The notes: generated by a model from the letters alone, not told the origin. A stretch of 64,000 nucleotides of DNA from a virus (IMGVR_UViG_3300049988_000263); one strand, 5' to 3'. Positions 5,270-35,400 are shown, numbered from the stretch's first letter. Translations and numbers: made by a program.

Positions 5270-5294
5270 ATTGCCAAATTCAGGAAGAATCACA

Positions 5295-5612
5295 ATGAGT
5301 TACCGAAATATCAACATCGACGGCCGACAGTGGCGCTTCAAGATCGGACGATCGTCCGTCCATCTTCGCGACCCGGACGGCAAGGGACAGGTGATCCCCA
5401 AGATCGAGATCACCCGTTACCGCCAGAGTCCGCGCAAGGAGATCAACATCGATCTGCAAGTGCACCGGGATGATCCGAAGAGCTTCCTCGACGCGATCAG
5501 TCGATGCTCCGATGCTCTCGCGATCATCGAAGAAGAGACAACATTAGGTCCACGTGACATTCGTCACTGGATCGAGAATCGACGCACGACTACTTCGATC
5601 TACAGAAACTAA
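5295..5612 (+). CDS. Hypothetical protein immediately after attenuator 1
   Basis: MSYRNINIDGRQWRFKIG...; AGGAAGA upstream. Confidence 0.6.
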   Translation: MSYRNINIDGRQWRFKIGRSSVHLRDPDGKGQVIPKIEITRYRQSPRKEINIDLQVHRDDPKSFLDAISRCSDALAIIEEETTLGPRDIRHWIENRRTTTSIYRN

Positions 5613-6392: not shown

Positions 6393-6416
6393 CGCTAAAT
6401 TCTATATGTTTTTGAG

Positions 6417-6507
6417 GGACAGGTGGCTGAGTTGGCTTAAGGCGCGCGCCTGGAAAGTGCGTGTACGTGAAAGCGTACCCCGAGTTCGAATCTCGGTCTG
6501 TCCGCCA
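6417..6507 (+). tRNA. tRNA-Ser(GGA)
   Basis: Cloverleaf, loop CTGGAAA, GCCA end. Confidence 0.95.
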
Positions 6508-6570
6508 AAAACATATAGATAGTAAATGAGCTAATTTCTATTATTCCTGCATATTGTAGGAATTTTAGAA

Positions 6571-24650: not shown

Positions 24651-25199
24651 AGACGATCCGGAGGTGTCTTCATCGAGGCTGAGTTCGAGGAAATCATCGT
24701 CCCCTCGATTTGGGAGGCGGAGACTTTTCTGGACAAGGTCGGCGACGAAAATCGCCGGATGATGTGGACGTTTCAGGACAAGGGCGAGCGTAACGTCTGC
24801 CTGATCCCGGAGGTTACCGGACTGTTGCAGGAGACGTGGCGGGAGGATTGGTCGAAGCGCTCCAAAACCCGCAACGTCTTCTACGTCCAGCGCTGCTACC
24901 GGTACGAGCGCCCCCAGGCGGGTCGATACCGGGAGTTCACCCAGCTTGGTATTGAGATGCTGGGGAGCCAGGACAGCACCAGGGCAAAGGCGCTCCTACG
25001 GGATTGCCTTGACCGGTTCGACGTGGAATATTCGTTCAACGAATCTGCCAAGCGCGGCCTCTCCTACTACGTGGAGGAGGGGTTCGAGGCGAGCGTGGCC
25101 AAGCTCGGCGCGCAGAAGCAGATCGCGGGTGGAGGGGCCTACGCCGAAGGTGTAGGCTGGGCCATTGGAATCGATCGATTGGTCCTGGCGAGGCAGTAA
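24590..25199 (+). CDS. hisS: Minimal histidyl-tRNA synthetase-like catalytic core with a +1 frame break near 24662
   Basis: AGGAG SD; MLRGTRII...ETIRR then, in the +1 frame, VFIEAEFEEIIVPSIWE; motif 2 YRYERPQAGRYREFTQLGIE; motif 3 GWAIGIDRL; no anticodon-binding domain. Confidence 0.8.
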
Positions 25200-27966: not shown

Positions 27967-28890
27967 TCACGCATCGATGAAGCGACACTCAAACTCTTGC
28001 GCGAAAGCGCGCTCACCCAGGGCATTCCGTTGCGTCGTGGCCCAGGCTTCATCCCGATCCGGATGGCAATCCCACGGAGCGAAGAACGGCGCGATCCCAT
28101 TCTGCCCACGACCATTGTCATCCACCTGAGTCTGCGACCCCTGCCAGACCTTGTGGAACAGGTCCCCGGTGAAGTTTGGCGTCGAGGTGAGGATGAAACG
28201 TGACGTGGGATTGCCCATCATCACCTGCATGGCATCCCACAGGTCCGGGCCAAGGCTGTGTGAGATATAGGCGAGTTCGTCGATGATCGTCAGCGAGATG
28301 GTCAGACCTCTAAAGGAGCCCGAGCCAGCCGCACGGGCCACGATCCGAGTCCCATTGTCGAAGCAAATCGCACCCTTGTTGTACTCGGTCGTGCCCATCT
28401 GAATATGCGGGGGTAGCTGCTCATAGATGAATCGGATTCGCTCCATGATCTCTAAGGCCCCGGCATATCGAGACGAAATGACCATCACGGTCTTATTGTC
28501 ATGAAATAGCGCGAACCACAGCGCATAGATCGCGATACAGGTGGTTTTCCCCATCTGCCGGGCCATATTCACCACGGTCCGAGGATTTCCCTGATAGAAA
28601 GCAAGAAGATGTTTCTGGAAGGGATACGGTTGGAACTTGATCGAACCCTTCACCGGGTGGTTGACGTGGCAATGCTTGGAGAATTCGAGAACACTTTCCG
28701 ACGCCTTGACGAGGTCCCGCATCTCTTCGAACAGGTAGGACTTCGCGGGTTCCTTCTTTGGTGGCGTGACCGGGGAAATGTAGTCGGCGATCGCGTTGGC
28801 TTTTAGGAACAGATCGTTAAGATTCGTCATTCCGGGATGCAGGCGAATGGCCGCATCGAGTGCGTGAACGCGCACTTGCTTCTTATCCAT
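27967..28890 (-). CDS. T4 gp17-like terminase ATPase domain (no nuclease domain)
   Basis: HPVKG..FQPYPFQ, Walker A MARQMGKTT, Walker B IIDELA, motif III TSTPN; ends at QEFECRF. Confidence 0.85.
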   Translation of the reverse strand: MDKKQVRVHALDAAIRLHPGMTNLNDLFLKANAIADYISPVTPPKKEPAKSYLFEEMRDLVKASESVLEFSKHCHVNHPVKGSIKFQPYPFQKHLLAFYQGNPRTVVNMARQMGKTTCIAIYALWFALFHDNKTVMVISSRYAGALEIMERIRFIYEQLPPHIQMGTTEYNKGAICFDNGTRIVARAAGSGSFRGLTISLTIIDELAYISHSLGPDLWDAMQVMMGNPTSRFILTSTPNFTGDLFHKVWQGSQTQVDDNGRGQNGIAPFFAPWDCHPDRDEAWATTQRNALGERAFAQEFECRFIDA

Positions 28891-33157: not shown

Positions 33158-33189
33158 TTGACACGCGTTTTGCACTCCCGGTATAAATA
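33158..33189 (+). promoter_or_regulatory. Promoter of the Met/Cys/Pro/Tyr/Phe leader
   Basis: TTGACA-N18-TATAAATA; shares TTGACACGCGTTT with the promoter at 5080. Confidence 0.75.
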
Positions 33190-33194
33190 AAATC

Positions 33195-33263
33195 ATGAAC
33201 ACGATGTGCCGCCCAATGCCGTATTTTCCCACCAAGGGGGCTCAGCCCACCGTGGAGCGGTAA
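33195..33263 (+). CDS. Attenuator leader peptide MNTMCRPMPYFPTKGAQPTVER
   Basis: Same promoter-leader-terminator layout as 5117 and 23870. Confidence 0.75.
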   Translation: MNTMCRPMPYFPTKGAQPTVER

Positions 33264-33292
33264 CACGCGCATATCCATAGGTGAGGTTTCGA

Positions 33293-33322
33293 GCCCCGGT
33301 CGCGAAAGCAGCCGGGGTTTTT
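33293..33322 (+). terminator. Attenuator terminator 3
   Basis: GCCCCGGTCGCGAAAGCAGCCGGGGTTTTT, nearly identical to terminator 1; GAGCCCC (33291-33297) pairs with GGGGCTC (33237-33243). Confidence 0.85.
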
Positions 33323-33435
33323 CTTTGCCTATAGCGTTCCCAAGTCAGACTCACCGAGTCAGATAACGGGGAAGCTGTGTCAGTAATAAAATTTGAGAGT
33401 ACTGAAAATACTTTCAAAAAAATTCAAATTAGTCG

Positions 33436-33464
33436 TTGACACCAAGATCGAGATGGAGGATAAC
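33436..33464 (+). promoter_or_regulatory. Possible sigma70-type promoter for the ncRNA/tRNA cluster
   Basis: TTGACA-N17-GATAAC. Confidence 0.5.
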
Positions 33465-33480
33465 AGGACAACGAAACGAC

Positions 33481-33710
33481 GGAACAAGTAACCGATCACA
33501 TCAAGGCTGGTGTAACGGCAGGATACCCAAAGCGCACCTTCACTCTCGCATCTGAGAGGTCGGATCGCCAGGGCCGAAGTCGAAATACGGTCTGACCGTG
33601 ATAGGCGCCTATCTGATCAGGACGTGCATGCCCGGCATGGAACCGGGAGGTGGGGCCGACTTATAAATCGGATTCCCGATTGTCATCTGATGTGATCGGT
33701 TACTTGTTTC
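33481..33710 (+). ncRNA. Structured ncRNA module A
   Basis: 21-bp perfect closing inverted repeat 33483-33503/33688-33708; GGATACC, GGCCGA, CTGAC motifs. Confidence 0.7.
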
Positions 33711-33713
33711 AGA

Positions 33714-33880
33714 AGAATCGTTGAATGATCTCATAGCTGGGGGCGTAAAAGGTAGGTCACCTTAAGGGCGATTGATGGCCTCAAAGGCCGATACCAAAAC
33801 TGACGCAAAGGAGTTTTAAACTCCTAGGAAAGGTATGAATCCCTTCCCAGATTGACACTATGAGATCATTCAACGATTCT
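33714..33880 (+). ncRNA. Structured ncRNA module B
   Basis: 23-bp perfect closing inverted repeat 33714-33736/33858-33880; GGTCACC, GGCCGA, CTGAC. Confidence 0.7.
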
Positions 33881-33882
33881 AA

Positions 33883-34055
33883 AAGGACGAAGAACAGACC
33901 GTAGTAAAGAGGTCCGGGCAGGACACCAAAGCCACGTAGGCTTAGGCCGATGCCCGCGCTGACAAACAGCGCTTTAGTGGGACGCCATGCATGAAACATG
34001 GAGGAGTCGGCGCAATACCGGCCAAGTCACCTACTACGGTCTGTTCTTCGTCTTT
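33883..34055 (+). ncRNA. Structured ncRNA module C
   Basis: 21-bp perfect closing inverted repeat 33886-33906/34032-34052; GGACACC, GGCCGA, CTGAC. Confidence 0.7.
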
Positions 34056-34288
34056 AAGAGGTAGGTAGTTAACCGTACTTGCACTAAGATAATCAGTTGG
34101 TCACCTCGGATGTGCGCACATCCAGGCCGAAACTGACACCATTCGCTGCGTAAGCAAAGGCTCCAAGGGTGAGACTGATCATCCACCTTTGAAGCTGGCG
34201 GTGGGAGGCAATCTGGCGAGTTTGGAACTCGTGAAATCTGGGTGAGAATCCCAGGTGAGACATGAGTACGGTTAACTATCTACCTCTT
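34056..34288 (+). ncRNA. Structured ncRNA module D
   Basis: 24-bp closing stem (one G-U) 34056-34079/34265-34288; GGTCACC, GGCCGA, CTGAC. Confidence 0.7.
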
Positions 34289-34290
34289 AT

Positions 34291-34374
34291 GGGAGAGTGT
34301 CCCGAGCGGCAATGGAGGCAGACTGTAAATCTGCTGCGTAAGCTTCGTAGGTTCGAGTCCTACCTCTCCCACCA
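34291..34374 (+). tRNA. tRNA-Tyr(GUA)
   Basis: Cloverleaf, loop CTGTAAA, variable arm, ACCA end. Confidence 0.95.
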
Positions 34375-34567
34375 AGAATTACCGAACGGTAATAAAAACC
34401 GTTTATTACCGTTCGGTTATAACGATGCTCGACAGCAGAATGAGGCTGGCGGATGGGAATCCATGGTAGTGCCCACCGTGCCCTTCGGGGATAGGTGGTG
34501 TGATTCCCCAAGCATCGACCAGAGATCGAGACCTGCGCGTTCTGCGGTGCGCCCATGGTCTCGTCGT

Positions 34568-34899: not shown

Positions 34900-35400
34900 T
34901 TACTGTCGCTTCCGCCACGCGTCTATGTAGGCCATGATCTTGGCCTCGACGAGGTGGCGGAAGCGGGAGTGCCAATATTGGTGATGATTTGGACATAGCG
35001 GGATGAGATTCCCAGGCTCGTTGTTCGAATTATCGCCATCGAGATGATGCACTTCGACGATGTTCTCTTCGTCGCAGACAACGCATCGTTTCGAATGGAA
35101 GTGAAAGCAGGTGGAGCGATACCGGGATTCTTTCCAGTTCGCAGAATCTGGTCCAGAGCGGAAATGGGTGTTTGCGCATCCGTATCCGCAAGTTGCTGAT
35201 GTCTTGTAGTTCTTTATCGGAGAATCGCAGACAATACAGGGTTTTAGATTCGACGGATTCAGGTGGCACGACGCTTCGTGTTTCTTGATGTTACCAAGAG
35301 TTCTTTCGGCAGAACAGTAGCGACAGGCTTCCTTCCGGACAGCCGCTCGGCGCGCTTTCTCAAGATTCTGGTAATGTTGTTCGGATCGATTATAAGACAT
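34900..35400 (-). CDS. HNH homing endonuclease within the tRNA cluster (antisense)
   Basis: CxxC motifs; VEVHHLDGDNSNNEPGNLIPLCPNHHQYWH. Confidence 0.9.
   Translation of the reverse strand: MSYNRSEQHYQNLEKARRAAVRKEACRYCSAERTLGNIKKHEASCHLNPSNLKPCIVCDSPIKNYKTSATCGYGCANTHFRSGPDSANWKESRYRSTCFHFHSKRCVVCDEENIVEVHHLDGDNSNNEPGNLIPLCPNHHQYWHSRFRHLVEAKIMAYIDAWRKRQ

Follow-up and report, generated by a model that had tools for sequence, protein, structure and literature searches.

Y RNAs and the RNA-surveillance protein Ro60 are conserved from bacteria to humans. Large non-coding RNAs that are carried by phages and prophages, often near tRNA genes, include GOLLD and ROOL, which are about 600-800 nt long. 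RNase III acts on near-perfect duplexes, ~20 bp or more being long enough. For the Y RNAs, a probable Rsr-contact motif, GNCGAA(N0-1)G, akin to the vertebrate GGUCCGA, has been described (Chen et al. 2014, PMC4201824). In the Thermus phage phiLo, mutation of CGAA weakens Ro60 binding (PMC12135203), and in the published phage case, one phage Ro60 binds its Y RNAs and damps the host PNPase in vitro (PMC12135203). Here, we describe an array of four abutting RNA units (A to D) that span positions 33481-34289 on the plus strand, directly before tRNA genes, in a 64 kb stretch of DNA (hereafter, the window) from an uncultured large phage of leaf metagenomes, IMGVR_UViG_3300049988_000263. The units are selected as plus-strand RNA structures and are best explained as encoding a single new family of stable structured RNAs, transcribed from the plus strand within a tRNA-operon precursor. 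Like GOLLD and ROOL, they are phage-borne, non-coding, structured and located near tRNAs, but, unlike these RNAs, they are modular, tandem and 170-235 nt long. A first-pass annotation of this DNA had drawn a comparison with GOLLD and ROOL and had called for an Rfam search; that search, run with gathering thresholds and with E<=10, retrieved only tRNAs in the region and no family within 33481-34289, so a kinship is not supported. In a further parallel, the near-perfect stems of ~20+ bp in the units resemble the stems at which RNase III processes rRNA and phage early transcripts, which flank a stable RNA in a polycistronic precursor; unlike in rRNA, the RNA that is enclosed belongs to a new family. 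Release of the units by RNase III is plausible from the length of these stems.

The units are listed below, together with the identity of their orthologues in L086, the single diverged relative found (through a protein database), in which the neighbour protein is 78% and the terminase 63% identical.

33481..33710, plus strand: unit A, 230 nt; stem arms 33483-33503 and 33688-33708, 21 nt, 100% complementary; L086 orthologue 87% identical
33712..33882, plus strand: unit B, 171 nt (167 nt from one stem end to the other); stem arms 33714-33736 and 33858-33880, 23 nt, 100% complementary
33883..34055, plus strand: unit C, 173 nt; stem arms 33883-33906 and 34032-34055, 24 nt, 96% complementary; L086 orthologue 94% identical
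34055..34289, plus strand: unit D, 235 nt; stem arms 34055-34079 and 34265-34289, 25 nt, 96% complementary; L086 orthologue 95% identical

The four stem-closed tandem units that the first-pass annotation had proposed are borne out by these inverted repeats (21-25 nt, 96-100% complementary) and by folding, with z-scores against dinucleotide shuffles of -5.6 for A, -7.4 for B, -9.0 for C and -6.9 for D, and none of 200 shuffles folding as well for any unit. The arm pairs have unrelated sequences in the four units. Unit D stops 1 nt short of tRNA-Tyr, where RNase P would cleave. As had also been claimed, the region lacks a credible open reading frame (ORF), the frames that overlap the units being only 39-72 aa long. 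No cloverleaf tRNA was detected within the units by ARAGORN or Rfam RF00005. The 12-mers of the stem arms do not recur elsewhere in the window, and a role of the arms as guides was rejected given that the window holds no other site complementary to them. Only one other inverted repeat longer than 20 nt with arms at least 75 nt apart was found in the 64 kb, around tRNA-Ser(GGA) (6401-6519). This tRNA (6417-6507) lies inside a 22-nt inverted repeat, 91% complementary, that prolongs the acceptor stem, which suggests that the phage may use long processing stems around tRNAs too.

The comparison with L086 and with metagenome variants demonstrates selection on the RNA structure. All seven closing-stem substitutions between the window and L086 keep the pairing in the plus-strand RNA, and five of these seven would be unpaired in a minus-strand RNA or in DNA. 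In helix P1 of the core shared by all units (see below), each of the five pairs changes on both sides among seven cores (four from the window and three from L086), with 92.9% of the P1 cells paired, compared to 75% in shuffles and 24-47% when the partner strand is slid. Specifically, P1 of unit D changes from CAGUU/AACUG to CGGUU/AACCG in L086, a compensatory replacement of A-U by G-C; in the metagenome variant X5 of unit A, two P1 bases are swapped and the pairs are kept; and in the terminal hairpin of unit A, an A-U and a G-U pair both become G-C in L086. The units are 87-95% identical to those of L086, whereas identity falls to 83% in the neighbour gene and to 71% in the terminase gene. The claim that the units are paralogous, independently folding structured RNAs finds support in the stem compensation on the plus strand and the covariation in P1. 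Unit B is absent from L086, which carries only A', C' and D', and a contig from the metagenome run X3 joins 33712 directly to 33884, without unit B; therefore, the units are gained and lost as precise cassettes.

So far, this RNA family is seen in one phage lineage only. A search of 50,697 phage records with the window yielded no near match, and a nucleotide search of the phage collection retrieved solely the tRNA-Tyr gene that was included in the query. The best match of the ClpB-like protein of the window in the same 50,697 records is from the Agrobacterium jumbo phage Atu_ph07 (48.9% identity); the protein is also 51-54% identical to those of several IMG/VR contigs of 150-520 kb. Syntenic relatives sought in IMG/VR and metagenome contigs with the 149-aa neighbour protein and the terminase were not found. 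The stretch itself is present in leaf, silage and freshwater metagenome runs, and the JGI and Logan contigs that carry it are identical across the array. The leaf-metagenome samples with the phage include JGI 3300049979 and 3300049989 and the runs SRR35533295 and SRR35533023, and the relative occurs in ERR11040811. The 24 runs listed as holding the stretch, which are represented by contigs only, are all marked as DNA or as of a kind not stated, and none as RNA.

The units have in common a core, or handle, with the same order of elements: the 5' strand of P1 (5 nt), GGWYA, CC, a variable hairpin, GG, CCGA and the 3' strand of P1. The core is predicted to form a bulged helix, in which GG-WYA-CC pairs with the GGCC of RGGCCGA(A/U). 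A covariance model (R2) was built from the core alignment of the four units trimmed at P1; MAFFT misaligned whole units and cores that included CTGAC, whereas the P1-trimmed cores aligned well, and a single-sequence model (R1) was too narrow.

33516..33582, plus strand: core of unit A, with P1, GGAUACC, a long variable hairpin and GGGCCGA; R2 38 bits
33750..33796, plus strand: core of unit B, with P1, GGUCACC, a hairpin and AGGCCGA; R2 41.9 bits
33916..33955, plus strand: core of unit C, with P1, GGACACC, a hairpin and AGGCCGA; R2 41 bits
34094..34135, plus strand: core of unit D, with P1, GGUCACC, a hairpin and AGGCCGA; R2 44.5 bits

The four units score 38-44.5 bits with R2, and the rest of the window scores 16.7 bits or less; the fifth match (5293-5332, 16.7 bits) was dismissed because it lies inside a plausible ORF. 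In L086, R2 identifies the three units A', C' and D' (26-46 bits). Both GGCCGA(A/U) and GG-NYA-CC are invariant in seven of the seven units of the window and L086, whereas P1 is different in every unit of the window (CGGCA/AGUCG in A, GGUA/UACC in B, GGGCA/UGCCC in C and CAGUU/AACUG in D). The hairpin that caps the core is dispensable: 26 nt of it are gone in unit A of variant X5, and in unit C' of L086 it is reduced to CC-CUCAGG-GG. The motif set of the first-pass annotation, GGWYACC...GGCCGA...CTGAC, was placed at exact coordinates, and the composite is found at only four sites on both strands of the window; its third member does not hold as a defining motif, being replaced by CUGAU, CUGGUC and CCGAC in the L086 units. 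In unit D, CTGAC is the 3' strand of P1. Pairing of CTGAC with the GGWYA bulge was considered and rejected because CTGAC is not conserved in L086. Another candidate pairing connects the WYA bulge with a 5-nt NGWCA tail that ends 0-2 nt short of the closing stem: units A and C would have an A-U pair here and units B and D a U-A pair, and the U-to-C change at 33524 turns a G-U pair into G-C. With four independent lineages only, this pairing is suggestive.

Outside the core, the bodies of the units differ, and their 3' halves bring tRNAs to mind. In units B, C and D, the 3' half begins with two short hairpins that are 2-5 nt apart, each with a loop of 7 nt; the first has a stem of 4-5 bp and the second one of 5-7 bp. 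A tail and the closing stem come next. The first loop conforms to Y-N-N-N-N-A-A in all three, and the second is T-loop-like (UAUGAAU in B; CGCAAUA in C, with UGCAAUC in L086; UGAGAAU in D, with UGCGAAU in variant X3). The spacing is that of the anticodon arm, variable loop and T arm of a tRNA, with no D-arm. Unit A has a longer hairpin in place of the second one.

33631..33647, plus strand: anticodon-arm-like hairpin of unit A, CCCGG-CAUGGAA-CCGGG; L086 differs in the loop only
33652..33677, plus strand: terminal hairpin of unit A, GGGG(CCGA...UCGG)AUUCCC, from the fold and the comparison with L086
33810..33847, plus strand: anticodon-arm-like (33810-33824) and T-arm-like (33827-33847) hairpins of unit B, from the fold
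33985..34022, plus strand: anticodon-arm-like (33985-34001) and T-arm-like (34006-34022) hairpins of unit C, with a 4-nt spacer, from the fold
34216..34254, plus strand: anticodon-arm-like (34216-34232; loop UUUGGAA) and T-arm-like (34238-34254) hairpins of unit D, with a 5-nt spacer, from the fold

Because no tRNA model scores these 3' halves, their resemblance to tRNA is a matter of inspection by eye only.

The handle is what makes the units resemble Y RNAs. As in YrlA/YrlB (RF02553), Deinococcus radiodurans Yrn1 (RF01053) and phiLo Yrl1/2, the 5' and 3' ends of each unit form a closing stem; an invariant GCCGA(A/U) in a potential bulged helix is combined with a GG-NYA-YC element; a conserved handle is joined to variable, partly tRNA-like bodies; and several different copies occur in tandem. 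As in phage Y RNAs, the units are located inside or beside a tRNA array. Unlike in Y RNAs, the handle helix of the units lies within P1 rather than in the closing stem. We found 7,973 Ro60 homologues, and in 80 bacterial Ro60 loci, the pair of elements cGG-GCCGA(A/U)G-N-GGUUAYC occurs 132 times on the Ro60 strand versus 12 times on the other, with UUA as the triplet between GG and YC in 67 cases. The mycobacteriophage Bxz1 encodes, upstream of Ro60, three stem-closed RNAs, one of them a partial match to YrlA, and each contains AGGCCGA, 6-7 nt and UCGGUUAYC; the same signature pair is present in the Y RNAs of Myrna and of the Gordonia phage Sixama, in which Y units alternate with tRNAs. The units of the window share both elements, RGGCCGA(A/U) and GG-WYA-CC, with the same potential bulged helix, in the opposite order along the strand, so that the GA end of their handle helix faces P1 and the opposite end carries the cap.

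Atu_ph07 and the Sinorhizobium phage Phosso both encode Ro60, with the gene located between those for the tail sheath and tail tube. We noticed unannotated Y RNAs with the standard handle in Phosso (PV764938.1, at 19160, 24193, 24430, 288700, 420442 and 420670) and in Atu_ph07 (NC_042013.1, at 446695 and 467062, minus strand). Their layout is a closing stem, GCCGA, ~8 nt, GGUUAUC ... YUUGC and the closing stem again, and some have a full tRNA-like domain. Most of them lie within tRNA arrays and are separated from Ro60 by tens to hundreds of kb, and the intergenic region that adjoins Ro60 in Atu_ph07 has no Y RNA. It is thus normal in this phage group for Ro60 to be far from the Y RNAs, and the criterion of a Ro60 gene within ~4 kb for recognizing Y RNAs is weak for jumbo phages. 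Dense tRNA arrays interleaved with YrlA-like and Deinococcus-Y-like RNAs beside Ro60 were also observed in two contigs from metagenome-assembled genomes (MAGs) of Verrucomicrobiota, upstream and downstream of Ro60 in one (L137) and mostly upstream in the other (L146); the probable source of these arrays is DNA of phages or prophages that was binned with the MAGs.

The interpretation that we favor, tentatively and at somewhat below an even chance, is that the units are Y-RNA-like RNAs, each a handle plus a body, that are cut from a tRNA precursor. Each unit consists of a long closing helix, a conserved handle (P1, the bulged helix and the dispensable hairpin) and a unit-specific body. The host RNase III would excise each unit at the 21-25 bp stems, and RNase P acting at tRNA-Tyr would set the 3' end of unit D. 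The handle would correspond, in circularly permuted form, to the element by which bacterial and phage Y RNAs bind Ro60/Rsr; if so, the RNAs would be expected to dock a Ro60-type ring protein, either encoded elsewhere in the large phage genome or the host's own Rsr. The differing bodies could then bring different partners to the ring protein, in the way that PNPase is tethered to Ro60 by Y RNAs, and the tethering might redirect RNA decay or quality control during infection.

Several observations weigh against a Ro60 connection. No TROVE/Ro60 protein was detected in the 64 kb window by Pfam searches of the large ORFs, PHROGs or tblastn with the Bxz1 Ro60; an unannotated 560-aa ORF was rejected as a Ro60 candidate, being helical and TelA-like, not ring-shaped, and a 446-aa ORF of the window has no match to anything. 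The nine IMG/VR contigs found through ClpB, the first five of which (ClpB identity of 52-54%) are 97-100% complete, contain neither Ro60 nor the units. The handle strands of the units are in reverse order compared with every Y RNA examined, and the bulge is AUA, ACA or UCA as opposed to UUA in Y RNAs. The permuted form is not enriched at the 80 bacterial Ro60 loci (24 occurrences on the Ro60 strand and 19 on the other), and no permuted unit was found, by the exact pattern or R2, in 15 jumbo-phage records, including those that encode Ro60; R2 matches near Ro60 in two Verrucomicrobiota contigs were discarded as chance junctions of a tRNA 3' end with the start of a standard Y RNA. The Rfam models of YrlA, Deinococcus_Y_RNA and tRNA do not match the units at E<=10; the same models do match the Y RNAs of Bxz1 and of the two MAG contigs. 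The units are 170-235 nt long with stems of 21-25 bp, whereas characterized Y RNAs are 80-130 nt long and have shorter stems. The shared motif amounts, by a rough estimate, to only ~18 independent bits. Finally, two registers of strand pairing fit the data for standard Y RNAs, so that it is by inference that we equate their structure with that of the units.

As the main rival, it is possible, if on balance doubtful, that the array represents a new structured RNA family unrelated to Ro60, with the likeness of the handles resulting from convergence on a short, G+C-rich bulged helix that binds some other phage or host factor. In this case, the RNAs would perhaps be mimics of tRNA halves that soak up tRNA-directed nucleases, modification enzymes or processing enzymes amid the flood of phage tRNAs. 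Consistent with such a family are the lack of Ro60 in the window and the nine contigs, the permuted form that never adjoins Ro60 in the loci and records searched, the lack of an Rfam match along with the restriction to this phage lineage, and the 3' halves that look like an anticodon arm and a T arm. However, the invariant GGCCGA(A/U) and GG-NYA-CC are the exact mark of Ro60-linked Y RNAs across many phyla, the combination of a handle with a variable body in a tandem array placed in a tRNA operon is typical of phage Y RNA arrays, and no other partner protein has been identified. Nothing specific was found in favor of the decoy, aptamer or antitoxin functions that the first-pass annotation had entertained. 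A more far-reaching proposal, which we regard as rather unlikely, is that the units are Ro60 partners of a new design, with the overall shape of a tRNA, a circularly permuted Ro60 handle where a tRNA has its D-arm, and an acceptor stem lengthened to two perfect duplex turns, and that they capture the host Rsr/PNPase for a phage that possibly lacks its own Ro60, or else that they form a wholly new class of protein-docking RNAs in one lineage of leaf-associated large phages.

The elements around the array in the tRNA operon are as follows.

33182..33335, plus strand: attenuator ahead of the array, read in the sequence, with a phage promoter box TATAAATA, a leader peptide (MNTMCRPMPYFP...) and a G+C-rich hairpin followed by a U-tract
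33437..33470, plus strand: possible separate sigma-70-like promoter (TTGACA, 17 nt, GATAAC), ~10 nt before unit A and identical in L086; putative
34291..34374, plus strand: tRNA-Tyr(GUA), identified by ARAGORN and Rfam, the first of six same-strand tRNAs (Tyr, Pro, Phe, Met, Cys, Pro)

Across the leader, terminator and 140-nt spacer, the window and L086 share 97% identity, while the flanking genes are only 71-83% identical. The leader peptide (33195-33260; 10758-10823 in L086) is kept except for an Arg codon that is replaced by a Gln codon (MNTMCRPMPYFP to MNTMCQPMPYFP). A consensus promoter scan did not flag the candidate at 33437..33470.

The units could also be mere processing spacers, with stems serving as RNase III sites for chopping the precursor and with functionless interiors. 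The stems are long enough for RNase III, a 22-bp stem also surrounds tRNA-Ser(GGA) at 6401-6519, and unit D abuts tRNA-Tyr. We nevertheless consider this improbable: conservation and covariation are seen in the interiors (P1, handle and terminal hairpins), the neighboring genes are less conserved than the units, one invariant core is common to four different bodies, and a spacer has no need of an interior of 120-185 nt. Still less probable is that the units are cis-acting sensors, such as riboswitches or T-box-like elements, that govern read-through into the tRNA genes. Their location between an attenuator and tRNAs would suit such a role, but no unit is followed by a terminator/anti-terminator alternative, each is locked by its own closing stem, one of the four copies is dispensable, no riboswitch family matches, and R2 finds no unit elsewhere in the window, including its two other attenuator-led tRNA operons. 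The least credible option, that the units act at the level of DNA as miniature inverted-repeat transposons, cruciforms or recombination sites, would account for the terminal inverted repeats and the precise presence or absence of a whole unit, but can practically be set aside, because the repeats differ wholly between units, unlike those of transposon copies, the window holds no other copies or target sites, and the stem substitutions rely on G-U pairs that can form on only one strand and that would be mismatches in DNA.

Several other features of the window were recorded. Directly 3' of tRNA-Tyr, at 34378-34420, there is a 19-bp hairpin (95% complementary, 5-nt loop) that is flagged as terminator-like on the minus strand only. 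Further along the tRNA cluster, between tRNA-Phe and tRNA-Met on the opposite strand (34900-35400, minus), a 166-aa ORF with weak matches to HNH endonucleases looks like a homing endonuclease. A 146-aa ORF that adjoins tRNA-His (24759-25199, plus strand) matches only the class II core of histidyl-tRNA synthetase (mini-HisRS). The G+C-rich segment 5620-5900, located between a small gene and tRNA-Ser(UGA), has no ORF and contains several hairpins that belong to no Rfam family. The large terminase (27967-28890, minus strand) is present only as a 307-aa N-terminal (ATPase) part, and several distant relatives are also ~300 aa long, so that the terminase gene may be split in this phage group.

If the units are Y-RNA-like, the permuted handle would reveal which part of the docking helix is read by the protein, and the combination of a single handle with four bodies would suggest that several partners are tethered. 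As a natural set of RNA cassettes, the array is unusually clean: each unit has its own perfectly compensated 21-25 bp stem, one unit is present in some strains and absent from others, and all the cassettes follow a leader-peptide attenuator within a tRNA operon of a phage. Even without a Ro60 partner, the units are a well-supported family of structured RNAs that is missing from Rfam.
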